Part shown: positions 34,952 through 46,722 of the stretch, one piece after another
Layout: each line of letters starts with the position of its first letter
Position numbering within the stretch: position 1 is the stretch's first letter
Made by a program: the position numbers and the translations under genes
Notes under the pieces: model-generated
What the model was told of the DNA's origin: nothing
The model's input: only the letters and a program-made list of their open reading frames with translations
Databases searched by the model: none
NCBI RefSeq assembly: GCF_947259545.1
Contig: NZ_CAMYMK010000003.1
Coordinates: forward strand, 57,469-121,468
DNA from: an uncultured Marinobacter sp.
Lineage (GTDB): Bacteria > Pseudomonadota > Gammaproteobacteria > Pseudomonadales > Oleiphilaceae
Reading direction: 5' to 3'
DNA: 64,000 bases

Positions 34952-36115
34952 TCAGTCAGATCGCTCGGCCAACCATTCCGCCAATTCCAGCCAGCTTTCC
35001 CGAGGTGCCTTGCTACCGGCCAGAATGCCCATATGCCCCCCCGGCACTACCCGGAATGTTCTGTCGGCTGAGCTGACGTGATCCATCACCCGCTTCGCCG
35101 CACCGGGTGTGGCCAAAGTGTCCTCCTGACCAGCGATGGCCAGTAAGTTGGCGTTCACATTCTCCAGGCGGGCAACATCTTCACCGATCTGAATCTCGCC
35201 CTTCGACAGCTGATTGTCGATCCAGATCCGCACCACGGTGTCCTGAATAATGCCGCCGGGGTAAGCCACCATCCGGTCCAGAAACGCCGACGTTGTAGCG
35301 TGGTTACTGACGAACTCCCGGTCACCCAGTCGTACAATCAACTCCCAGTAACCCATCACGCTGCCAATCGGATTGGTCAGCTTGAAACCAATCGTATTGG
35401 CCCAGCCCGGTGTGTGGAACCAGTGGGGTTTGACATTGTGGATGCGAAAACCGGTGCGTTTTCGCACAAAGTCCGCCACATCCGCGACACGCTGGTACAT
35501 CAGACCCATCAGACCGGACGCATGACTATCGATGGGCAAACCCAGAACCACGGCGTTGCGGATGTGCTGATCCTTGCTCAGAGCCGAGTAGAACAGCGTA
35601 AACATGCCGCCCATGCTCCAGCCATGCAGCGACAATTCCTGCTCTCCGCTGTGTTCCCGCACCCGGTTCAGATACGCTGGCAGCAACTCCGCCACGTAGG
35701 TGTGCAGATTGTAGTGACTGTGCTCGCGGGTCGGGATACCCCAGTCGATCAGGTACACCTCAAATCCCTTCGCTCGCAGGAAACGCACCAGACTGCGCTG
35801 GGGAAACAGGTCATAGATCAGCATATTCACCGCCAGCGGCGGCACTATGACAATCGGTGTTTTGTGTGCGGTGCGTTCCACCGTGATGGTTTCGCCATCC
35901 AGCTCGATAAAATCCTCCGCCAGCGGCGGATAATACCGCAGACTGACCAGGCCATCGGTGTGCAGTGTTTCAAACGGCGTTTGTCCCGCCTGCACCAGGC
36001 TGGCGGCGCGGAATACCCGGTCAAAGGCATTGCCCGCATAAAGAGCCGTTTGCCGGGTGAGTCCCGACGCTTTGTCAGCCGCGGATTTGAAGAGGTTTGG
36101 CATGGGAATGTCCAT
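34952..36115 (-). CDS. PHA synthase (PhaC class III)-like alpha/beta hydrolase with Ser in the lipase box
   Basis: TPIVIVPPL...IYDLFPQRSLVRFL..GFEVYLIDWG; HGWSMGG; EDTLA; GGHMG. Confidence 0.8.
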   Translation of the reverse strand: MDIPMPNLFKSAADKASGLTRQTALYAGNAFDRVFRAASLVQAGQTPFETLHTDGLVSLRYYPPLAEDFIELDGETITVERTAHKTPIVIVPPLAVNMLIYDLFPQRSLVRFLRAKGFEVYLIDWGIPTREHSHYNLHTYVAELLPAYLNRVREHSGEQELSLHGWSMGGMFTLFYSALSKDQHIRNAVVLGLPIDSHASGLMGLMYQRVADVADFVRKRTGFRIHNVKPHWFHTPGWANTIGFKLTNPIGSVMGYWELIVRLGDREFVSNHATTSAFLDRMVAYPGGIIQDTVVRIWIDNQLSKGEIQIGEDVARLENVNANLLAIAGQEDTLATPGAAKRVMDHVSSADRTFRVVPGGHMGILAGSKAPRESWLELAEWLAERSD

Positions 36116-36301
36116 AGTGGGATTCGAAACTCACTTTGATGCTTGGCGTTTGCGTGAAGGCTACCGCCGCATTCTGAATTGAGCTATGGCACCACCGTCA
36201 CAAAAATGGGGCACACCGGTCACTTCGGGCCACTGCCCAATCCGGTCTCTGATTGATATGATTGCTCCCCATTTGGAAACAACAACCAAAACAGGACAAC
36301 C

Positions 36302-37207
36302 ATGCTCAGCTTCCTGCCCGCTCCCGTTATCGGTGTACTCAATTCCATCCTGCTGGGAATCAACACACTGTTCTGGTGCCTGCTGCTCTACATTCCGGCG
36401 CTATTGAAACTCATCGTTCCCCACCAGGGCTTCCGCGTGCTCTGCACCCGAGCCATCATCTGGATCTCAGAATCCTGGGTGGCCTGTAACACCGGCTGGA
36501 TGAAACTCACCCATGGTACCCGTTGGGATGTGAAAGGCGCGGAGAACCTGCAGCGGGAAAGCTGGTACCTGGTGCTGAGCAATCATCAGAGCTGGGTTGA
36601 TATCTTCGCCATGCAGCGGGTCTTCAACCGTAGGGCACCGTTCCTGAAGTTCTTCCTGAAGCAACAGCTGATCTGGGTGCCGGTCATCGGCCTGGCGTGG
36701 TGGGGGCTGGATTTCCCGTTTATGAAACGCTACACGCGGGAATACCTGATCAAACATCCGGAGAAGCGTGGTGAAGATCTCAAGGCTACCCGCAGGGCCT
36801 GCGAAAAGTTCCGCTACACTCCGGTCAGTGTGATGAACTTCGTGGAAGGCACGCGCTTTACCCCGGCCAAGCACGACAAGCAAAAATCACCCTACACTCA
36901 TTTGCTCACCCCCAAAGCTGGCGGTGTCGCCTTTGTACTGGACGCCATGGGTGACTCTATCCAGACCCTGGTGGACGTCACCATTGCCTACCCGGGTGGC
37001 GCGCCCACCTTCTGGGATTTTATCTGCGGTCGGGTGAGTGAAGTGAAAATGGAGATTCACACCGTTGCTATCCCGGAGCATCTGAAGGGGCGGGATTACT
37101 CAACGGATGCGGAGCATCGCAGAAACGTCAAGGAGTGGCTGGCGGATCAGTGGCGGGCCAAGGATGAGCGCCTTTCTGCGATGCTGGGTGAATCCGTCAA
37201 AGTTTAA
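36302..37207 (+). CDS. Acyltransferase, YihG/PlsC family
   Basis: SNHQSWVDI, FFLKQQL, FVEGTRFT, LLTPKAGG. Confidence 0.92.
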   Translation: MLSFLPAPVIGVLNSILLGINTLFWCLLLYIPALLKLIVPHQGFRVLCTRAIIWISESWVACNTGWMKLTHGTRWDVKGAENLQRESWYLVLSNHQSWVDIFAMQRVFNRRAPFLKFFLKQQLIWVPVIGLAWWGLDFPFMKRYTREYLIKHPEKRGEDLKATRRACEKFRYTPVSVMNFVEGTRFTPAKHDKQKSPYTHLLTPKAGGVAFVLDAMGDSIQTLVDVTIAYPGGAPTFWDFICGRVSEVKMEIHTVAIPEHLKGRDYSTDAEHRRNVKEWLADQWRAKDERLSAMLGESVKV

Positions 37208-38344
37208 TCAGTTAACGAGGTCGGGATACACTTGCTTGGTCGCGGTGAAGACCTCGTTGAAATTCTTGTCGTTGCCGTGCTTCAGCCTGAGGTATCGGGC
37301 CATGTCTGCAAGTGAGTTGAAGCTCATGTCGGATGTGGCTCTGATGTGCTCCCAGCCGCCAGAAGCTTCTATCGCAGCCCGGCGGCCAATAGCCTCGCCG
37401 ATTGCAGAGCCTGCCATACCCACCAGTGCAATAGCCGCGAAACTATCGGAAAATTGTTCTGCAACAACACTGGCCGTGGCAGCCCCGGCGACGGTGCCCA
37501 CCTGGGCTCCGATCCCTGCGTTGATGGCCTGGTTAACCCACTCGGCGGTGACACCGTCACTGGTGTAGGGCGACAGATATTCCCCTGAATTGTTATTGAT
37601 GACGGCCTCGCTGGCCTGTTCCAACCGGTTGTCGTCAATTGGGGGATATTGCCTGGCGATGAGCTCCTCATCAAAATCGCGCCGTTCCATGGCTGCAAGA
37701 ACCTTCTCCATCCGAATCGAAACATTTCGATAATGGTTTACTTGCTGGAATGAATGTCCCTCAGAAGCTGCTAACGCCTGTTTGTTAGAATCCCGTCTGA
37801 TAGTGACAGCCTTTATCGCTGACAGACCTTTATCATTCATTAAGGTTGGATCCGCTCCGCGGTTTATTAATAACCTGATGGCCGCGGGCGATTTAAAGAA
37901 AACGGGATGATGGAGTGCTGTGTCACCCTTGGCGTTTCTTTGGCTGATGTCCCCACCCGCATCAAGGACGGCTTTGACTGCCGGGTAGGAAGTTGCTGCG
38001 AACAAGGCCGGCATGTCCTCACCTTCCTTGAGGCTCAAAGATACGTCGGCGCCATAGGATACTAACAAGTCAAATAGCTTCTGGTTGAAATCGTTGTAGA
38101 GGACCGAGCTTCCAAAGGCTGCATAAAGTGGCCGGTCTCCTTTGTAATTCGTTGAGTTAGGATCGGCACCTTCTTTCAATGCCTGCTCCGCAGCATTGAG
38201 ATCTGGATCCGAAACAATCGCATCAATCAGAACGTTGTGGAGTTTATTGTTAGTGCGGGTGGCACACCCGGAAGTTAATAAAACCGAGACAACCAGCAGT
38301 GCCAGCAGGATTCGCTGATCAATATGTTTAAAAGAGAGTACCAT
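37208..38344 (-). CDS. Ankyrin-repeat lipoprotein with conserved SPYTSDGV C-terminal domain (paralog A)
   Basis: Lipobox LTSG-C; ankyrin motifs GADPN, GDRPLYAA, GDTALHH, LINRGADPT; YLSPYTSDGVTAEWV. Confidence 0.85.
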   Translation of the reverse strand: MVLSFKHIDQRILLALLVVSVLLTSGCATRTNNKLHNVLIDAIVSDPDLNAAEQALKEGADPNSTNYKGDRPLYAAFGSSVLYNDFNQKLFDLLVSYGADVSLSLKEGEDMPALFAATSYPAVKAVLDAGGDISQRNAKGDTALHHPVFFKSPAAIRLLINRGADPTLMNDKGLSAIKAVTIRRDSNKQALAASEGHSFQQVNHYRNVSIRMEKVLAAMERRDFDEELIARQYPPIDDNRLEQASEAVINNNSGEYLSPYTSDGVTAEWVNQAINAGIGAQVGTVAGAATASVVAEQFSDSFAAIALVGMAGSAIGEAIGRRAAIEASGGWEHIRATSDMSFNSLADMARYLRLKHGNDKNFNEVFTATKQVYPDLVN

Positions 38345-38397
38345 GAGCAATTTGTCCTCTGACCTGAAAGGAAGTAGGGAAGTTCCGGAGTAACGAA

Positions 38398-39531
38398 TTA
38401 ATCAGCGAGTTCGGGATATATCTTTGAAGTTGCATTAAAAACATCTTCATAGTTCTCGTCATTACCATGCCTCAATTCAAGATAGCGCCGCATATCCTCA
38501 ATTGAGTTAAAGCTCATGTCGGACGTTTCTCTGATGTGCTCCCAGCCCCCAGAGGTTTCTATTGCGGCACTGCGTCCAATAGCCTCGCCAATCGCGGAGC
38601 CAGCCATGCTCACGACAGCCACGACTGCAAAGCTTTCCCCCAGTTCTCTTGCGATGGATCCGGCGGTAGCTGCACCAGTCGTTGAGCCAATCTGGGCCCC
38701 TATTCCTGCGTTAATTGCCTGATTGACCCATTCTGCAGTGACTCCGTCGCTGGTATAGGGGGACAGAAACTTCCCTGAACTGTCCGGAATAATATTTTTG
38801 CTTGCCAGCTCCAGCCTATTGTCATCGATAGGAGGGTATTCTCTGGCTATAAGAGTCTCGTCGAAATCTCGCGATTCCATGAGTGCCAGAATCCTCTCCA
38901 GACGAATTGCACGTCTGCGTTGGCTTTGCGCGAAGGTGACTGAATTTTTTTCGATGAGATGGCCCAGACGCTCTTTTGACGAGTCACGGACGAAAATGAC
39001 GACGTCAATCGCGGAGACGCCACGCTTATCTTTAAGGTGAGGATCAGCGCCCAATTCCATCAGTCGTTCCACGGCAGCGGGCGTCATTGATGCCGAATGG
39101 TGAAGAACCGTCTCACCACTGGAGGTTCGCTGTTTGACGTCGGCGCCGGCGGAGACGAGGGCCTCCACGGATTCGAGGGTTTTGGCGAAGAAAATCGCGG
39201 GTAAGTCGCCTTTTTCTACGAGACTAATGGATAAATTTGCATTGTATGAGGTGAGAAGTTCGAAGAGGTCTTTATTAAAGCCGTCGTTATCAGTACCCCG
39301 GATGAAGGCTTTTTTGTCTGGGATGAAAGCTTTGTGTAGAGGACGAACGCCGTCGTACAAAACCATGTTGGGGTCAGCGCCTTCCGCAAGCGCTTGCCTT
39401 GCCAACCCAATATCCTGTTCGCCAATAAATGCATTTTGCAGTTTTGTATTTGGCGTGGCGCAGCCAGAGAGCCAAATCATTGTAAATGTAAGACAGAAAC
39501 ATGCCGCGGTCTTTATGTAGCGGTTAAACAT
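38398..39531 (-). CDS. Ankyrin-repeat lipoprotein with conserved SPYTSDGV C-terminal domain (paralog B)
   Basis: Start MFNRYIK; lipobox LSG-C; GADPN, GVRPLHKA, GETVLHH, LGADPH; FLSPYTSDGVTAEWV. Confidence 0.85.
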   Translation of the reverse strand: MFNRYIKTAACFCLTFTMIWLSGCATPNTKLQNAFIGEQDIGLARQALAEGADPNMVLYDGVRPLHKAFIPDKKAFIRGTDNDGFNKDLFELLTSYNANLSISLVEKGDLPAIFFAKTLESVEALVSAGADVKQRTSSGETVLHHSASMTPAAVERLMELGADPHLKDKRGVSAIDVVIFVRDSSKERLGHLIEKNSVTFAQSQRRRAIRLERILALMESRDFDETLIAREYPPIDDNRLELASKNIIPDSSGKFLSPYTSDGVTAEWVNQAINAGIGAQIGSTTGAATAGSIARELGESFAVVAVVSMAGSAIGEAIGRSAAIETSGGWEHIRETSDMSFNSIEDMRRYLELRHGNDENYEDVFNATSKIYPELAD

Positions 39532-39559
39532 AATAGCTGTTCTCGAAAGCACTTGGATT

Positions 39560-40375
39560 TTATAATTCCGCCAGAGTCTGCAGCGCCAATTCCTGCCCCA
39601 CATCCCGCATGGACACGCGCTTCTCGCGTTTCTCGAAACCGTTATCCGTGGCAATCCAGCGGCGGTCTTCCTCGGTCTCCGGCGGCATGCCGTTGGAGCT
39701 GACCATGGTGCGGACCGAGCCGTCCTTGACGTTCAGAACGCGGATCTGGAAGTCATCGGAGGCCACTTCGCTGAGTACCAGCAGGTAATCCGCGTGCTGG
39801 TCCAGGGCGCGCATTTCCAGCCGCGCCTGGTCCGGTGACAGGCGTTCGAAGGTGCCATCCTCCAGGGCGTTGTCGGTAATGCGCATGATGGCATCGCGGT
39901 CGACAACTTTGACCCCGGCGCGGTTCAGCTGGGAGACAAAACCGCTTTGCAGGTCAAAGGCCGGTGCCGCCGGGCCAGAGCTTCGGCCCGAGCGGGTTTC
40001 GCTTTGCACGGCAGAGCGGGAGTCGCCGTCCAGATTCACATCGCCTTCGGGAACCTCGCCGCGCAGGCTGCCGGTGCTGGAAACCACCACTCGGCGACGG
40101 CTGGCCCAGTCGCTGACCTGATCATTGAACGTCCGATTCCAGAAAATCGCGATCCGGGGATCGGTTTGCCCCATGCCCTTCGAGAACCGGTCCAGAATGG
40201 CCTGGGCCGATTCAGAACGCTGCGATGCGTTAGCCTCGTTGACCAGGTCGTCTTCCGTCAGAGGCTTCTGGGGTTCTGCTTTCATGGGTGCGGCCGCGTG
40301 ATCGTTAGCAGAATGCACTGAAAGCGGGTACAGGCTGGCTACACAGGCGGCGGCGACAAAAAATCGTTTCATCAT
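39560..40375 (-). CDS. Exported protein with CsgG/TolB-N-like alpha/beta features
   Basis: Sec signal; RIAIFW, GVKVVDRDAI, ADYLLVL, IRVLNVKDG pattern resembling the CsgG/LpoB clan. Confidence 0.6.
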   Translation of the reverse strand: MMKRFFVAAACVASLYPLSVHSANDHAAAPMKAEPQKPLTEDDLVNEANASQRSESAQAILDRFSKGMGQTDPRIAIFWNRTFNDQVSDWASRRRVVVSSTGSLRGEVPEGDVNLDGDSRSAVQSETRSGRSSGPAAPAFDLQSGFVSQLNRAGVKVVDRDAIMRITDNALEDGTFERLSPDQARLEMRALDQHADYLLVLSEVASDDFQIRVLNVKDGSVRTMVSSNGMPPETEEDRRWIATDNGFEKREKRVSMRDVGQELALQTLAEL

Positions 40376-40818
40376 TCAAGCCCCCTGACTTCTACCCGGT
40401 ACTGTAGTGGCTGTGTTCCGGTTGAAAGTTCTTTGTAGGAGCTGACGCTGTTGGCCGGGATGGTGGAACGCTGCCAGGTGGGTCTGGCGTCCACCGGCAC
40501 GCCATCCTGATCGAAAAACTGGGTGCGGGCTTCGATCTGGTAGTCGTGGTCGGTGTGGTTACGCAGCACCGCGTAGACTTCCGTGGTTCCGGTTTCGGTG
40601 CGACGGCGTCCGTGATTGATAACGGACAGGCGATAGGTCTTGCCGCTGCCCATAATGCCGCCTCCCCAGGTCCGGCTCAGGTCGTAGTCGGTAAAGACCA
40701 CTGTGTTGTATTCAACCGGTGCGGTACGTTCCGTCAGTTTGGTGGAGTCACTGGGTATCGAGGAGCATCCTGCAACCAACAGCCCTGCCGCTGCGGTCAT
40801 AGCGATCAGTGTTCTCAT
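40372..40818 (-). CDS. YcfL/DUF1425-like lipoprotein
   Basis: Lipobox LVAG-C; LRNHTDHDYQIEARTQFFDQDG...PTWQ pattern. Confidence 0.75.
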   Translation of the reverse strand: MRTLIAMTAAAGLLVAGCSSIPSDSTKLTERTAPVEYNTVVFTDYDLSRTWGGGIMGSGKTYRLSVINHGRRRTETGTTEVYAVLRNHTDHDYQIEARTQFFDQDGVPVDARPTWQRSTIPANSVSSYKELSTGTQPLQYRVEVRGLE

Positions 40819-40819
40819 T

Positions 40820-42067
40820 TCAAAGGTCTCCTTTCCAGTCTAGGGGGCGGCGGGACGTGGCCAGTGCCAGTCCGCGGCCGCGGCCGTCAAAGTTGAATTC
40901 AGTGGTATGAGTCATGCCGGGAATCGGATTGCCGTTCTTGTCCAGAAAACGTACGGTGACTTTTTCGCCGGGTTCGGCCGTGATGGGCATGATGTGGAGC
41001 GTGTCCGGCAACGCTTCCCAGTAACGGATGTCCGCGCGCACATTGGCGGACGCCGACATACCCTGGGCGGCAACGCTGACCAGGCTGATGGCCGCAAAGC
41101 CAGCTCCAAGCACGCCCCCGGTTGCGGCACTGACACCGGCGAGCATGTTGTTCTGGCTCACCGAGCTGAGAGTGGTGCCGACATCACGGGTGGTTGATTT
41201 GTACTGGACCTGGCCTTCAACAATGCGATCAATGGCGCGACCGCCCCGGGTTGAGGCTTGAAAAAAGACGTCTTCCATGGGGTAAACCGTTTCCCAGCCT
41301 TTGTCTGTTTTCAGCTCCGCGCCCACATCCCGGAAGTTTTTGCCCCGGCGGTAAACCAGCTGGTAGTGGCCAACGCCATCGCCCAGCTTGCGGGGGGAGT
41401 TGCCGGTTTCGACGATCAGCAGTGCGTTGTGCTCTTCCGACGGAATGGGGGCGTCAGGCCGGAAGGCCTTCAGTTCCTCAAAATGCTGTTCAGCGAGTTT
41501 GTTGCTTTCCATCTGGGTAGCCGCCCAGCCGGCGAGATAGATCAGTGCCGCGAAATCCGCGCTGTTCTGTTCCTCCTCGGCGAAGGCATCCTGCAACAGG
41601 CCACTGATAAAGCTGGCCCGCGCGTTGCCATAGTCGCCCTCTTCCAGAAAGATCAGGCCCAGGTACAGGTACACCATTGAGCGTTCGTAGGGTTCGCCTT
41701 TGAAGTCCTTCTCGGCTTCCTCGTACCAGACGCTGCGAGCCTTGCGGGCGGCTTCATCGTCGGCGTAGATGCTTTCGATGCCGACTCTGGCCTGGTTCAG
41801 CGCTTTTTTTGCCTCGTCTCTGTAGCCTGCCCGGTAAGCTTTGAGGCCAATCTCCATCAGGTTAAGAACCTCGTTGCGACGGCCTTCCTGGTAAAGATTG
41901 CGAAAATCCTCCTGCACCACGGCGGGTTTGCTGGCCACAACCTGTTGCTGTCCGTCGGACAGGGTGGCGCGGTCGTAAGTTTTGGGCCCGGTTGCACAGC
42001 CGGCCAGCGTTGCGGCGAGCACCGCGCTGGTCAGCAGAGCCGGGCGGTGATTAACGGTAAACCACAT
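40820..42067 (-). CDS. TPR-containing lipoprotein (COG3014-like)
   Basis: Lipobox LAG-C; FKGEPYERSMVYLYLGLIFL..GDYGNARA; exact start uncertain (42067 or a nearby GTG). Confidence 0.75.
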   Translation of the reverse strand: MWFTVNHRPALLTSAVLAATLAGCATGPKTYDRATLSDGQQQVVASKPAVVQEDFRNLYQEGRRNEVLNLMEIGLKAYRAGYRDEAKKALNQARVGIESIYADDEAARKARSVWYEEAEKDFKGEPYERSMVYLYLGLIFLEEGDYGNARASFISGLLQDAFAEEEQNSADFAALIYLAGWAATQMESNKLAEQHFEELKAFRPDAPIPSEEHNALLIVETGNSPRKLGDGVGHYQLVYRRGKNFRDVGAELKTDKGWETVYPMEDVFFQASTRGGRAIDRIVEGQVQYKSTTRDVGTTLSSVSQNNMLAGVSAATGGVLGAGFAAISLVSVAAQGMSASANVRADIRYWEALPDTLHIMPITAEPGEKVTVRFLDKNGNPIPGMTHTTEFNFDGRGRGLALATSRRPLDWKGDL

Positions 42068-42692
42068 CGTCACGGGCCGCCTTGCGCATTTCGTAGAGTC
42101 CGCTCCAGACGATAGTGCCCAGCTCCAGGTCCACCATTTCAAAGGTGATCTGGCTGTAGCGGGACTGGGTGCCATCGCTGCGGTCCGCCGCGTCCAGGGA
42201 GGTGATGCGGCCCGCCATACGGTAGTCGGCGCCGGCCTGGGCCGCGGTTTCGCGAATGGTGCCGCCATCGACGGCGCCGTCACGTTTCAGGTCACGTTCC
42301 TTCTGGACCATGCCCGCGTATTCTCGGCCTACAAACACCATGCGGCCGTTGGCGGCGCGGTTCAGTTCAATTCGCAGGCGGTCAGTCAGCATGTTGGTGT
42401 TGACCACCGATGAGCTTTCATTACGCAGGTATTCGTTGTCGATGATGATGCGCGGCGGGACATCACGACCCGCCAGCATGGGGTTGGCCAGCATGTCCCG
42501 CATCATCTCGTCGGTAACGGCGACAATGTCCTGGCTTTCAATACCAACGCCGCCGACCTTGCCGGTGGTGGAGGCATCTTCATACACCGTCGCCTCGCCA
42601 CGGGTGTTATCTATATTGCTGGCGCAACCCGCCGTCAGGGAAACCGACAATGCCAGGCCCGCTGCCTTGGCAAATGGGGAGATGGATCGCAT
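42051..42692 (-). CDS. LpoB-family (penicillin-binding protein activator-like) lipoprotein
   Basis: Lipobox TAG-C; NESSSVVNTNMLTD, GADYRMAGRI, VDLELGTIVWS. Confidence 0.8.
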   Translation of the reverse strand: MRSISPFAKAAGLALSVSLTAGCASNIDNTRGEATVYEDASTTGKVGGVGIESQDIVAVTDEMMRDMLANPMLAGRDVPPRIIIDNEYLRNESSSVVNTNMLTDRLRIELNRAANGRMVFVGREYAGMVQKERDLKRDGAVDGGTIRETAAQAGADYRMAGRITSLDAADRSDGTQSRYSQITFEMVDLELGTIVWSGLYEMRKAARDDVVYR

Positions 42693-42721
42693 AAATTAAC
42701 TCCGGTCAGATGAATCAGGGA

Positions 42722-42747
42722 ACCGGCGGAGCAGGAGCTCCGCCGGT
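42722..42747 (-). other. GC-rich intra-operon hairpin without U-tract
   Basis: ACCGGCGGAGC-AGGA-GCTCCGCCGGT just after the stop of the first operon gene. Confidence 0.7.
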
Positions 42748-42752
42748 GTTAA

Positions 42753-44108
42753 TCAGTAGGCAGTTGCCAGGGCGCCCTCGAGTTCCGGGTATACCTGCAG
42801 GGTCACTTGCATGGCGTCGCCATAAGTCGGCTCCCGACCGTATTTCTGCGTCAGGTACACGGCCATGTCCCGCAGGGAGTCAAAACTCATGTCAGAAGAC
42901 TCGCGGATGGTTTCCCAGCCGCCGGAAGCGGAAATGGCAGCTTCGCGACCGGCGTCCTTACCCATCTGGGAGCCGATCATGCCGCCTATCAGCCCGGCAA
43001 ACGGGACCGAGTCCAGTACCTGATTAGCGACCATGCTGCCGGCAGCCGCACCAACACCGGAGCCAACGGTACTGCCCATGCTGGCGTTGGTGCCGATATT
43101 CACCCATTCAGCCAGAACCCCATCGGAGGTGTACGGGCTCATATATTCACCCTGATTGTCGCGGCGCACCATTTTGGTCAGCAGGTCATCGGGCATTGGT
43201 TTAGCGGCGATAGCGGGCATGGTCATGCCGGAGCAGGCGCCGTCATCCACCATTTCGCCATACTGGAAACAGGTTCTGCGTTGGCCCTCGGGGAGCAGGT
43301 AGTTGGTCATCCAGCCGTGAGTGACATCATTTAGCATGCTTGTTGAGCTTGTGAGCCGGCTGCCCATGTAGCTGTCGACCCGGGCTTGCGGTCCCATGGC
43401 GGTTTGCTGGTTCCTGCGAACCAGGGTCGTCGTGGTGTTGGCTGCCGGGTTGGCGGTCAGGATAAGGTGGGTATCGGATTCGACGCCTTCCTTAAAGACG
43501 CCGGAGGTTGCTGTCAGGGTCTGGATGTTCACCGTCTGACCGTTATAGGAATTGGCCGAATTCTGGCGAGTCAGGAAACGCGCTTCACCCTCAAGTTCTC
43601 CGCTGTTGGCAGTGGCTTCAGTACGCACCTTTGCTTTGCTTGTCGAACTGCTGGCATCGGTGGTGACGGTCTGGGTGTAACTGCCAACGCCAACGAACGG
43701 TCCCTCAGGCATGCCATTGACGCACTCGCCCTCGAGAAGTTTTACAGACTCAATACGGGTGTCTTGTTCCATCTCAAACTGGACGCCGTGGCGGGCCTGT
43801 ATGGCTTTGATTTCGGCCTCGGATTTACCATGTGTCACCATCCATTGCCCGGCGGTGCTCAGTTCGCAATCAATGGCGCCAGTAGTATCAAAGTAACTGT
43901 CCGGAGACGCCCGGAACTGCTGAAAGCTGGTGCGCAGTTCGCTGTGTCGTTGCTGCAGTTCCTCATCGGTGAACTGAGGTGACGACTGCAGTTCCGCCTG
44001 ACTGACGGTTGCCATGGTCCCGCCCAAATAAGCCGGATTAGTCGCCAGACAGCCAGTGAGAGTGGTTGAAAGTATGAAAATACCGAGTAGTGAATTCTTC
44101 TTGGTCAT
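42753..44108 (-). CDS. Lipoprotein with beta-rich N-terminus and conserved SPYTSDGV C-terminal domain (paralog C)
   Basis: Start MTKKNSLLG; lipobox LTG-C; YMSPYTSDGVLAEWV...ASGGWETIRESSDMSF. Confidence 0.85.
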   Translation of the reverse strand: MTKKNSLLGIFILSTTLTGCLATNPAYLGGTMATVSQAELQSSPQFTDEELQQRHSELRTSFQQFRASPDSYFDTTGAIDCELSTAGQWMVTHGKSEAEIKAIQARHGVQFEMEQDTRIESVKLLEGECVNGMPEGPFVGVGSYTQTVTTDASSSTSKAKVRTEATANSGELEGEARFLTRQNSANSYNGQTVNIQTLTATSGVFKEGVESDTHLILTANPAANTTTTLVRRNQQTAMGPQARVDSYMGSRLTSSTSMLNDVTHGWMTNYLLPEGQRRTCFQYGEMVDDGACSGMTMPAIAAKPMPDDLLTKMVRRDNQGEYMSPYTSDGVLAEWVNIGTNASMGSTVGSGVGAAAGSMVANQVLDSVPFAGLIGGMIGSQMGKDAGREAAISASGGWETIRESSDMSFDSLRDMAVYLTQKYGREPTYGDAMQVTLQVYPELEGALATAY

Positions 44109-44388: not shown

Positions 44389-44592
44389 TCAGTCCTGATC
44401 GTCTTCTTCGACCTCGTCGGGGTGCTCCTGTTTGTAACGCTCCCACTCTTCCCAGTCGTGGGGCGTGCCAGCGTGGGGGCGCTTCAGGTGTTTTGCGTGC
44501 TCCATAGCGTTATGGCGCAAGCTGTGGTCCCGCTCCTCTTCGTCCGTGTCGAAACCGTATTTCTTGAGGAACTCGTCAGGACTGATGGGCAT
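44389..44592 (-). CDS. Small acidic His-containing hypothetical protein
   Basis: 67 aa; AGGAGG RBS upstream of ATG. Confidence 0.7.
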   Translation of the reverse strand: MPISPDEFLKKYGFDTDEEERDHSLRHNAMEHAKHLKRPHAGTPHDWEEWERYKQEHPDEVEEDDQD

Positions 44593-44652
44593 GGCGCACC
44601 TCCTTTTTAAGGTATTGCCTAGTTAATACGGTGCGCCTGTGCCTTTGGTTTT

Positions 44653-46638
44653 TCAACCCTTCTGTGGTTCGTCTGGCTTGATGATTTCTTCGGCGTCCAC
44701 CAGCCTGAAATTGATCTGCTTTCGTTCCTCGTCCACGTCCGCGAAAGTCACGGTGACCGGCTGCTCCAGCTGGAAAATGCGGCCGTTCTTGTTGTGGATA
44801 AGGCGCAGGGTGACCGGATCAAAGCTGAACTTGCCTTCAAGCGTGCGGCAGCTGACAAAGCCTTCCAGGCCGTTGGCGTCCAGGCGGACAAAGAATCCGG
44901 CGGGCACGGTGCGGCTGATGACGCCGGGCATGGGGTCAGCCCCGAGCGTCTTGGCGAAATCGCTCTTGAGCCAGCTTTCCAGACTGTTCGCGGCCTGACG
45001 TGCCCGGATCTGGGTGGCCTGCAGCTCCGCCAATTGTTCTTCGGTCAGGTCACTCATGGGCTCCTGCCACAGAATCGACTTGATCAGTCGATGCACATGG
45101 AAGTCGCTGTACTTACGAAGGGGTGAGGTGAACGTGGTGTAAGCCGGCAGCCCCATGCCCTGGTGAGCCGCTGCTTCGAACGCCAGTTCCGCCCGTGCCA
45201 GCTGGCGAGAGATGATGGCCTTGACCGGGACCTCGGCGTCCAGTTGTTCCGAGCGTTTCATCAGATCACGGAAGCCCTCGGCGGAGGCCGCATCGACACT
45301 GGCCAGCTCCGGAGCATAGCTTTCGAGCAGGGACCGGATATTGTCTGCTCGGTCGCCACGCAGGCCGGGGTGCTGGATAAACAGGCCCCTGGACTGCTGG
45401 CTGAGGAAATCCGCGGCACAGCGGTTGGCGGCCACCATGCATTCTTCCACCAGCCGATGGGCTTCGTTCTGTACCGAGGGTTCGATCAGTCGTACCCGTT
45501 TGTTCTCGTCCAGGCGCAGGCGGAATTCGGGGCGGTCCGCACTCAGCAGCGCGTGCTCGCCGCGCCATTTGCGCAGGGCGGTAGCAGTCTGGTGTAGCTG
45601 ATCGAGGCTGTTGGCAACCGCGTCGGGCAGAGCTTTGATGTCGTCGTCCTCGCGGCCTTCGATCAGGTTGGATACCAGCTCGTAGCTGAGCTTGCCCTTG
45701 GACTGGATCACCGCCTTGTGGAAACTGTAGTCGCCCAGGCTGCCATCGTTGTTAACCTGCAGGTCGCAGACCAGCGCCAGGCGCTTGACGTCGGGCATCA
45801 GTGAACACAGCCGGGTGCTGAGGCTGTCCGGCAACATCGGCAGGGGCTCACCGGGGAAATAGATCGCCGTGGCCCGGTTGAACGCTTCGGCTTCGGCAGC
45901 ACTGCCCGGTTCGATCACCGCGGTGGGATCGGCAATGGCGATGGACAGTTTCCAGCCGGTGGCATTGGGCTCGGCCAGCAGCGAGTCATCCATATCCTGG
46001 GTACCCGGGCTGTCAATGGTGACATACGGCTGTGAGGTGCGATCCTCACGATCACCGGACTGAGCTTCCACGGTGCCTTCGTCCAGGGCGTCAGCCTGTT
46101 TTTTTACCGCTTCCGGCCAGGTGTCCAGCAGGTCAAAAGTGGCCAGGGTAAAGGACCGTTCAATGCCCGGTTCCCCGGCCTTGCCAAGGACCTTCAGGAT
46201 TTTGGCCTGACCCTTGCCATCCTTGAACGGGTGTTTGTGGATGCGGCAGTAGATGAAGTCATCCTGCTCGGCATTCATCCGCTCTTTCGGTGGAATGAAA
46301 ATCCAGCGGTTGATGCCCGGGGTTTCCGGCACCACAAAGTGCCCTTTGCCCTTGATCAGATAGCGCCCGACGAACGTGGTCAGGTTGCTTTCCAGCAACT
46401 CATCCACCACACCCTGGAGTTTGCCCTTGTCCCCTTCCTGTTCGGTGATATTGACGCGGTCACCGGGCAGCACCTTCTGCATTTCCTCCGGTGGCAGGAA
46501 GACATCCCGGCCCTCGTCAAGCGCGACGAACCCGAAACGACCGTTAGTGGCTTTGACGGTGCCGGGGAAGACCACCTTGTTTTCTTCGATGTCAGTTTTC
46601 AGCTGGCGCAACTGGCTGAGAGCGTCGGCATTGAGCAT
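44653..46638 (-). CDS. RNase II/R (RNB) family 3'-5' exoribonuclease
   Basis: CSD-like RFGFV, TIDSPGTQDMDD, IADPT, HRLVEECMVAAN, TFTSPLRKYSDFHVHR, C-terminal S1. Confidence 0.92.
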   Translation of the reverse strand: MLNADALSQLRQLKTDIEENKVVFPGTVKATNGRFGFVALDEGRDVFLPPEEMQKVLPGDRVNITEQEGDKGKLQGVVDELLESNLTTFVGRYLIKGKGHFVVPETPGINRWIFIPPKERMNAEQDDFIYCRIHKHPFKDGKGQAKILKVLGKAGEPGIERSFTLATFDLLDTWPEAVKKQADALDEGTVEAQSGDREDRTSQPYVTIDSPGTQDMDDSLLAEPNATGWKLSIAIADPTAVIEPGSAAEAEAFNRATAIYFPGEPLPMLPDSLSTRLCSLMPDVKRLALVCDLQVNNDGSLGDYSFHKAVIQSKGKLSYELVSNLIEGREDDDIKALPDAVANSLDQLHQTATALRKWRGEHALLSADRPEFRLRLDENKRVRLIEPSVQNEAHRLVEECMVAANRCAADFLSQQSRGLFIQHPGLRGDRADNIRSLLESYAPELASVDAASAEGFRDLMKRSEQLDAEVPVKAIISRQLARAELAFEAAAHQGMGLPAYTTFTSPLRKYSDFHVHRLIKSILWQEPMSDLTEEQLAELQATQIRARQAANSLESWLKSDFAKTLGADPMPGVISRTVPAGFFVRLDANGLEGFVSCRTLEGKFSFDPVTLRLIHNKNGRIFQLEQPVTVTFADVDEERKQINFRLVDAEEIIKPDEPQKG

Positions 46639-46722
46639 GAACGGGACCTGGCTGGTAAAAATGAATGATGGGGCGGAGTATAACGGTTCTCGGTCCACGC
46701 GTCAGATAGCAGACTTCCGATA

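Follow-up and report, generated by a model that had tools for sequence, protein, structure and literature searches.

A previously undescribed glycine-zipper domain at the C-terminus of three Marinobacter lipoproteins is linked to an LpoB-like/TPR-like lipoprotein operon

The 64,000-nucleotide stretch of uncultured Marinobacter sp. DNA analysed here (contig NZ_CAMYMK010000003.1; hereafter, the window) contains three lipoprotein genes, designated A, B and C, whose products end in the same domain of ~130 residues with a double GxxxG glycine zipper. We found that this domain defines a previously undescribed and unannotated family of exported, lipidated proteins, and that the family is linked to, and co-inherited with, an operon for LpoB-like, tetratricopeptide-repeat-like (TPR-like) and YcfL-like lipoproteins. 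We place the domain among the glycine-zipper envelope lipoproteins, as a new variant, and within the LpoB/YcfL/TPR class of operons, as a new component. Judging by this linkage, it is probably part of an outer-membrane complex with its operon partners. The reading that we favour, with moderate confidence, is that of a dedicated periplasmic subunit, tethered to the outer membrane, of a compact and horizontally scattered envelope module, in which the zipper hairpin would serve assembly and the modules fused to the domain would act as adaptors.

The three domain copies align cleanly over 136 residues, the copy of A being 68% identical to that of B and 54% identical to that of C. Fifty-four columns are invariant, and they include every motif on which the original prediction had based its claim of a common C-terminal domain of ~130 residues: SPYTSDGV.AEWVN, the GxxxG runs, SGGWE.IR..SDMSF and YP.L. 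The positions given there for the three copies (37211-37600, 38401-38790 and 42756-43150) are correct to within a few codons. A hidden Markov model (HMM) built from the three C-termini retrieved 319 clusters at E≤1e-3, and 255 at E≤1e-10, from 1.84 billion representative proteins. The resemblance between A, B and C is far beyond chance, and the domain is a genuine family. Its members are annotated at source as 'hypothetical protein' or, in Marinobacter and Alcanivorax, as 'carboxyl-terminal protease-like protein'. One member of 533 residues, P0206, comes from a eukaryotic transcriptome (EukProt, TRINITY contig) and most likely reflects contamination of that assembly with bacterial sequence.

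No Pfam or NCBIfam model covers the domain in the window proteins, and no Pfam model covers it in the best 150 of the 319 family representatives, the sample to which the Pfam, fusion, lipobox and architecture counts below also refer. The earlier statement that the domain cannot be assigned to a named family therefore holds, and no characterised Pfam family with a known role has turned up for it. Two glycine-zipper models come out sub-threshold on the window domains: PF13488 (Gly-zipper_Omp) at 17.8-20.9 bits versus a cut-off of 25, and PF05433 (Rick_17kDa_Anti, or Glycine zipper 2TM) at 12.8 bits versus 24.2. An E-value below 0.001 is reached by 4/150 family members for the former and by 2/150 for the latter. 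A sequence search of the PDB with the domain profile found no relative; its one match, 6az5 (E=0.004), is a 116-residue fragment deposited as alpha-amylase, with 57 matched residues that are Gly-rich and acidic, and we judged it to be chance. A Foldseek search of the PDB with the AlphaFold2 (AF2) model of the domain likewise gave no fold relative (best E=3.6, TM ≤0.24). With PADLOC and PHROGs, strong matches fell only on the ankyrin repeats; the shared domain gave nothing of note and the rest was marginal (E≥0.0004). On this outcome a defence or phage origin was rejected.

All 11 contexts of the domain gene that were inspected individually have as neighbours a PF13036 lipoprotein of ~210 residues, a TPR-like lipoprotein of ~410 residues, a DUF1425-like protein of ~150 residues and a secreted protein of ~280 residues. 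These contexts include Marinobacter genomes G017 and G025, Pseudidiomarina, Aliikangiella, Candidatus Stygibacter, a Gemmatimonadota metagenome-assembled genome (MAG), a marine metagenome contig and G110; in the Alcanivorax context the module genes are present but reordered. A scan of one genome per species (185,579 species), based on a peptide pattern, gave 62 loci, whose open reading frames (ORFs) were scored with four partner profiles. Because a single peptide pattern was used, the scan underestimates the spread of the family. The loci fall in Marinobacter, Alcanivorax/Alloalcanivorax, Pseudidiomarina/Idiomarina, Alteromonas, Perlucidibaca, Methylococcaceae, Magnetococcales, Terasakiella and other Alphaproteobacteria, Syntrophales, Desulfobacteraceae, Nitrospina, Victivallales and Gemmatimonadota. 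An LpoB-like and/or a TPR-like gene lies beside the domain gene at 57 of the 62. All four partners are present at 43 loci, the LpoB-like, TPR-like and YcfL-like genes at three, the LpoB-like and TPR-like genes only at eight, the LpoB-like gene only at two (both at contig ends), and the TPR-like and YcfL-like genes with the secreted protein at one. The remaining five loci have no partner: L051 is cut by a contig end, L071 lies on a 2.6-kb contig, and three are second copies away from the module, namely L072 (Alcanivorax jadensis), L086 (a tandem pair in Alcanivorax sp. IL2) and L087 (a Syntrophales MAG), with the full module elsewhere in the same genome (L067, L063 and L046, respectively).

The association also holds when approached from the other side. 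Starting from the TPR-like family in four genera chosen outside the 62-locus list (Shewanella, Spongiibacter, Rheinheimera and Aquisalimonas), we found a domain gene at all four loci (E=1e-36 to 1e-41), each time directly upstream of the LpoB-like gene. Within the genus, 3 of 37 genomes have the domain; the LpoB-like gene, searched for in 24, was found only in the domain-bearing G000 and G017, and G025 also has it. Among 400 evenly drawn Gammaproteobacteria, the two genomes with the domain are the only two with a full-length TPR-like match. Weak partial TPR-like matches occur in 14 further Gammaproteobacteria, and the one inspected, G085, has a distant, paralogous cluster without the new domain (L031, C1:2462000-2476000) that consists of an LPP20 lipoprotein, an LpoB-like protein, a TPR-like protein and a 397-residue LPP20-containing lipoprotein. 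Since LPP20 proteins stand there instead of the domain protein, the LpoB-like/TPR-like core pairs with different accessory lipoproteins by lineage. The original prediction did not register this strict linkage, although LpoB-like, TPR-like and YcfL-like genes lie between A/B and C in the window itself. Two arrangements depart from the usual layout: at L060 (Nitrospina sp.) two TPR-like genes flank the domain gene on either side, and in Terasakiella (L084) the module is split over both strands with the domain gene divergent, so that adjacency is retained without co-transcription.

The glycine zipper is genuine and conserved. Across 306 members, glycines G37, G41 and G45 of the first arm are 93-98% conserved and G49 81%, while G70, G74 and G78 of the second arm are 95-99% conserved. 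The loop of the hairpin has the consensus E/N-K-A-L-E-N-V-P, proline included, in which K55 and E58 are largely conserved, and positions 72 and 75 (K/E) and 79 (R79) of the second arm are charged in 62-87% of these members. Outside the zipper, P17, T19, D21, W27, F100, Y131 and P132 are invariant. An AF2 model of the domain made from an 83-sequence alignment (mean predicted local distance difference test score, pLDDT, 79.3; predicted TM-score, pTM, 0.72) is confident for residues 1-30 and 65-136. There it forms a core with a short beta-bridge between YMSPY(TSDG) and (SDx)SF and helices packing W27, F100 and Y131-P132 (profile numbering). Residues 33-57, modelled poorly, correspond to the distal (outer) half of the zipper hairpin, which projects from the compact helical core.

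The original prediction had called the domain membrane-inserting, which is not an established property. Its hairpin has only short apolar arms and conserved charges in the loop and the second arm, AF2 confidence is low for the distal hairpin, and the Kyte-Doolittle hydropathy (KD) of the family is below that of Escherichia coli SlyB. For the top 19-residue window, the family mean is 0.96 ± 0.29 and only 3% of members reach 1.6; the values are 1.64 for A, 1.75 for B and 1.23 for C, versus 1.51 for the SlyB hairpin. At most, a shallow or conditional membrane insertion of the hairpin is plausible.

SlyB, YfgH, OsmB and YiaD have been described as outer-membrane-stabilising glycine-zipper lipoproteins, and a SlyB oligomer has been solved (bioRxiv 10.64898/2025.12.22.696046). 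They are like the new family in being lipoproteins with a helical hairpin that bears GxxxG on both arms, and in their likely outer-membrane location; oligomerisation through the zipper is a plausible principle common to both. One could therefore imagine that the domain protein is an autonomous transmembrane glycine-zipper lipoprotein of the SlyB/YfgH type, with a hairpin inserted into the outer membrane, forming rings that stabilise nanodomains of lipid or of outer-membrane proteins under stress, with neighbours that are only loosely related to it. The two GxxxG-zipper helices on a lipoprotein, the weak Gly-zipper_Omp and Rick_17kDa_Anti matches, the pairing by hhalign of 22 zipper columns with E. 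coli SlyB, and the hairpins of A and B, about as hydrophobic as that of SlyB, are all in keeping with such a role. However, we consider it unlikely. The Pfam scores stay under the gathering thresholds, and hhalign gives a probability of only 28% with no likeness beyond the zipper. In the window proteins the zipper is set in a conserved helical domain (SPYTSDG, SDxSF, YP) and not before a beta-sandwich, the flanks being helical in the AF2 model. Family-wide, the hairpin is less hydrophobic and keeps its charged residues. The gene is tied to an operon, and the near-absolute linkage to LpoB-like and TPR-like genes speaks against autonomy, while fusions to Ank, PDZ and MORN domains further set the family apart from SlyB.

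All operon partners are exported and most are lipoproteins; Pfam and NCBIfam reveal no enzyme, ATPase or inner-membrane component among them, and PDB sequence searches with the four partner proteins returned nothing useful. The LpoB-family protein of the window is encoded by the sole PF13036 gene of the genome. It scores 74.7 bits, below the equivalog cut-off of 110.55 of NCBIfam TIGR02722, and a phmmer search of the PDB with it found no solved LpoB; by these sequence measures it is a member of the LpoB family but not a bona fide LpoB. Like E. coli LpoB, the outer-membrane activator of penicillin-binding protein (PBP) 1b, it contains PF13036 and is a lipoprotein of the outer-membrane type. Unlike it, the protein falls under the NCBIfam cut-off, is lacking in most Marinobacter and is co-inherited with the module, and the comparison concerns the neighbour of the domain protein, not the domain. 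The TPR-like lipoprotein of the window has no Pfam family, and TPR matches are found in its orthologues; the alignment shows 40-79% identity across seven lineages. Around residues 300-350 it has a conserved Gly/Ala-rich helix, GGVLGAGFAAISLVSVAAQGMSA, followed by an invariant RAD.RYW..LPD motif; the segment VSAATGGVLGAGFAAISLV has a KD of 1.72, and the conserved pattern of the helix is GGxLGAGFAAISLVSVAA. The motifs KDFKGEPYER and QDAFAEEEQ are also highly conserved. The secreted protein of 271 residues has no Pfam, NCBIfam or PDB match, and orthologues of it occur at 44 of the 62 loci.

Operons of similar content are known. The term SpaP-like, used in one of them, is presumably an old COG name for the LpoB/YcfM family. 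The Campylobacter jejuni operon cj0089-cj0090-cj0091 has three genes, encoding a TPR lipoprotein, a small lipoprotein and a lipoprotein of ~210 residues with a SpaP-like domain (Oakland et al. 2011, PMC3100323). Both this operon and E. coli ycfL-lpoB are like the module in their exported products, with a TPR lipoprotein of ~410-450 residues, a small lipoprotein and an LpoB-type protein of ~210 residues, and in having no enzyme. The likeness of the module to cj0089-cj0091 is one of gene sizes and annotations only, and beyond those three genes the module adds the new domain protein and the secreted protein of ~280 residues. In the literature on DUF1425/LpoB and YcfL we found no paper on the module of domain plus operon.

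In Pseudidiomarina/Idiomarina, Alteromonas, Rheinheimera and Spongiibacter, 17 loci have a gene for an S41 peptidase as the immediate neighbour of the module, on either strand (L009, L010, L049, L053, L058, L061, L065, L069, L070, L077, L079, L081, L085, L088, L090, L116 and L117). In Shewanella (L115) an NlpC/P60 gene follows the module in place of S41. Such neighbours could hint at a connection to proteolysis or to the remodelling of the wall. In the NlpI-Prc and LbcA-CtpA systems, TPR lipoproteins are adaptors of S41 proteases, and the module might by analogy be a regulator of cell-wall remodelling whose domain protein serves as an adaptor, working with the LpoB-like protein on a PBP or with an S41 C-terminal-processing protease. 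The placement of one partner in Pfam LpoB agrees with this, as does the fusion in 10/150 representatives of PDZ, a binder of C-terminal tails. The same C-terminal tail, ...VVYR-COOH, closes the LpoB-like protein both in the window and in G017 (L008 1421-2068), and as some relatives combine PDZ with the new domain, an interaction of PDZ with the ...VVYR tail is conceivable. Nevertheless, we regard a wall-remodelling role as quite unlikely. Positions 28000-52000 of the window contain no S41 gene and most loci are likewise without one; the LpoB-like protein lies under the equivalog cut-off and leads to no solved LpoB by sequence; and the glycine zipper is left unexplained. Moreover, most Marinobacter lack the whole module, and for this reason it cannot be a core PBP activator.

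The architectures of the family bear on the proposal, made in the original prediction, that the domain is a sorting module on polymorphic lipoproteins. That its carriers are lipoproteins was correct: a lipobox is present in A, B and C and in 96/150 representatives, and Asp at +2 in none. Equally, the N-termini do differ. Ankyrin repeats had been noted in two of the three proteins, and Pfam Ank_2 is indeed found in A (E=1e-10) and B (E=1e-6). Across the representatives, the HMM search yielded a varied catalogue of fusion partners (Ank in 15/150, PDZ in 10/150, MORN in two, and also Tectonin, PPC, OMP_b-brl and several regions without a known family), with no invariable N-terminus. The domain is C-terminal after at least 80 other residues in 87/150, N-terminal with a C-terminal extension in 21/150 and in the middle in 2/150. 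In 40/150 it makes up a stand-alone protein of ~175 residues, consisting of a signal, a Pro-rich linker of ~20 residues and the domain. With the exception of Marinobacter, Alcanivorax and a small number of other Gammaproteobacteria, most lineages have the stand-alone form, which was seen in Desulfobacteraceae, Syntrophales, Nitrospina, Gemmatimonadota, Victivallales and Alphaproteobacteria. Since this stand-alone lipoprotein is widespread, the domain appears to be a subunit in its own right and not a cargo tag. In P0046 the order is signal peptide, domain, PDZ and OMP (outer-membrane protein) beta-barrel, as confirmed by Pfam, and P0066 has the same architecture; an outer-membrane barrel thus takes the place of the lipid anchor in both. 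The architecture of P0046 therefore suggests that the domain is placed on the periplasmic side of the outer membrane.

Were the domain a C-terminal sorting or export tag, the LpoB-like/TPR-like/YcfL-like machine would sort, or expose at the surface, a variable N-terminal cargo. Several paralogues with different N-termini in one module (the window has three, G025 and Alcanivorax two each) and the frequent C-terminal position are what one would expect of such a tag. Yet the sole copy in most lineages, like the 40 stand-alone representatives, is a domain without cargo, and the sorting-module proposal is a poor fit to a family whose main form has nothing attached. The domain is also N-terminal in 21 representatives, the module is without a beta-barrel or an energy-coupled component, and in the AF2 model the ~130 residues fold into a unit whose core is well packed, unlike a short signal. 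We find a tag on cargo improbable and, with stand-alone forms predominating outside a few genera, reject it. Glycine zippers do occur in some membrane-damaging effectors, for example a type VII secretion system effector, and the N-termini vary, but a pore-forming toxin or bacteriocin-like domain on polymorphic carriers is scarcely credible for a family with Sec/lipoprotein signals only, no secretion-system marker, toxin, immunity or defence family found, no adjacent immunity-like gene pattern, a conserved housekeeping-style operon and stand-alone forms conserved across phyla.

We return to the domain as a dedicated subunit of an envelope module. It is suggested by the occurrence of the domain alone in most lineages, always beside the same exported partners and co-inherited with them. 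The export of the partners, their mostly lipoprotein nature and the lack of an enzyme, ATPase or inner-membrane component point to a periplasmic assembly attached to the outer membrane. Such a module would consist of the domain protein and the LpoB-family and TPR-like lipoproteins, usually joined by the YcfL/DUF1425-like lipoprotein and the secreted protein of ~280 residues. The domain protein would be anchored to the outer membrane, on the side that faces the periplasm, through its N-terminal lipid; in some relatives a fused beta-barrel would be the anchor. The zipper hairpin would provide an assembly surface, either for self-association or for packing on a partner, and might touch the membrane superficially; a candidate for that partner is the Gly/Ala-rich helix in the TPR-like lipoprotein, with which it might pair. 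The basic form would be the domain alone, and the extra copies in Marinobacter, Alcanivorax and a few others, with their ankyrin, PDZ, MORN or other heads, might recruit other envelope components to the complex as adaptors. The outer-membrane location, the formation of a physical complex, the use of the hairpin as an interface and the action of the fused modules as adaptors are inferences. A bolder version, tentative and on balance doubtful, would have the five proteins form a hitherto unrecognised periplasmic assembly, attached to the outer membrane and passed between phyla as a single cassette, with the domain as a zipper ring or plug at the membrane, a universal socket for interchangeable heads (ankyrin, PDZ, MORN, Tectonin) that recruit envelope clients.

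Several observations weigh against a dedicated subunit of this kind. In Perlucidibaca/Paraperlucidibaca (L075, L076 and L080) the domain gene is divergent from the other four genes, and co-transcription is thus not universal. Some loci in Desulfobacterota and Victivallales have only the LpoB-like and TPR-like partners. The low AF2 confidence of the hairpin may simply reflect disorder. Furthermore, protein contact, localisation and oligomerisation are all inferred properties.

We see the value of the result as moderate: it is a well-supported new domain and operon association and not a new mechanism. A clean unit of family size, with ~130 residues and a double GxxxG zipper, has been overlooked by current domain databases. 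For the widespread and functionally unexplained LpoB/YcfL/TPR lipoprotein operons it offers a subunit-specific marker and, in the zipper, a candidate interface, while PDZ, ankyrin repeats and an OMP beta-barrel, to which the domain is naturally fused, are handles for further work on the module. Periplasmic ankyrin-repeat lipoproteins are unusual in themselves. If the module should prove to be an envelope scaffold or a wall-remodelling regulator, the domain would be the part that links it to its clients.

In the window, the module takes the form of seven co-directional minus-strand genes separated by short gaps or overlapping, in the order C, LpoB-family, TPR-like, YcfL/DUF1425-like, 271-residue secreted protein, B and A (table below).

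Genes of the seven-gene block and the copies of the shared domain, in window coordinates (aa, amino acids)
Feature	Position	Strand	Description
Gene C, first of block	42753..44108	-	451-aa lipoprotein, lipobox TLTGC; Cys-containing N-terminal region and C-terminal domain
Domain copy in C	42756..43163	-	from the alignment; HMM E=1e-71; copy of the AF2 model
LpoB-family lipoprotein	42051..42692	-	213 aa, lipobox LTAGC; Pfam PF13036, E=2e-24
TPR-like lipoprotein	40820..42073	-	417 aa, lipobox LAGC; Gly/Ala-rich hydrophobic helix near C-terminus
YcfL/DUF1425-like lipoprotein	40372..40818	-	148 aa, lipobox VAGC; Pfam PF07233, E=3e-7, 30.7 bits versus cut-off 28.3
Secreted 271-aa protein	39560..40375	-	conserved fifth module member; Sec signal
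Gene B	38398..39528	-	376-aa lipoprotein, lipobox IWLSGC; ankyrin repeats and C-terminal domain
Domain copy in B	38401..38808	-	from the alignment; HMM E=1e-78
Gene A, last of block	37208..38350	-	380-aa lipoprotein, lipobox LLTSGC; ankyrin repeats and C-terminal domain
Domain copy in A	37211..37618	-	from the alignment; HMM E=5e-79

For C, the likely start at 44108 (MTKKNSLLG...) is later than that of the longest ORF and agrees with the 451-residue homologues P0151-P0153; for B, a start at 39528 (MFNRYIK...), again later than that of the longest ORF, is likely. The N-terminal ~320 residues of C, which contain Cys, match no Pfam family, and the only match of the whole protein is the sub-threshold Gly-zipper_Omp; a single-sequence AF2 model of full-length C reaches a pLDDT of only 33.

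The seven-gene block is an accessory indel of ~7.1 kb without a counterpart in most congeners. That it is an indel follows from its flanks: the acyltransferase gene (36302-37207) directly adjoins the small ORF/RNase II gene (44390-46698) in congeners G004, G005 and G006 (L111-L113). No flanking repeats, att-like sites or mobility genes were found around the block, and consensus scans for promoters and terminators gave a count not above the shuffled expectation. Gene A (minus strand, ending at 37208) and the convergent acyltransferase gene (plus strand, ending at 37207) meet stop codon to stop codon, with zero intergenic bases and no recognisable terminator. A and B share 55% identity overall and have the appearance of a tandemly duplicated lipoprotein with ankyrin repeats and the domain. 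The two genes also occupy the stretch of lowest GC content in the window (36000-40000), at 0.52-0.55 versus ~0.59.

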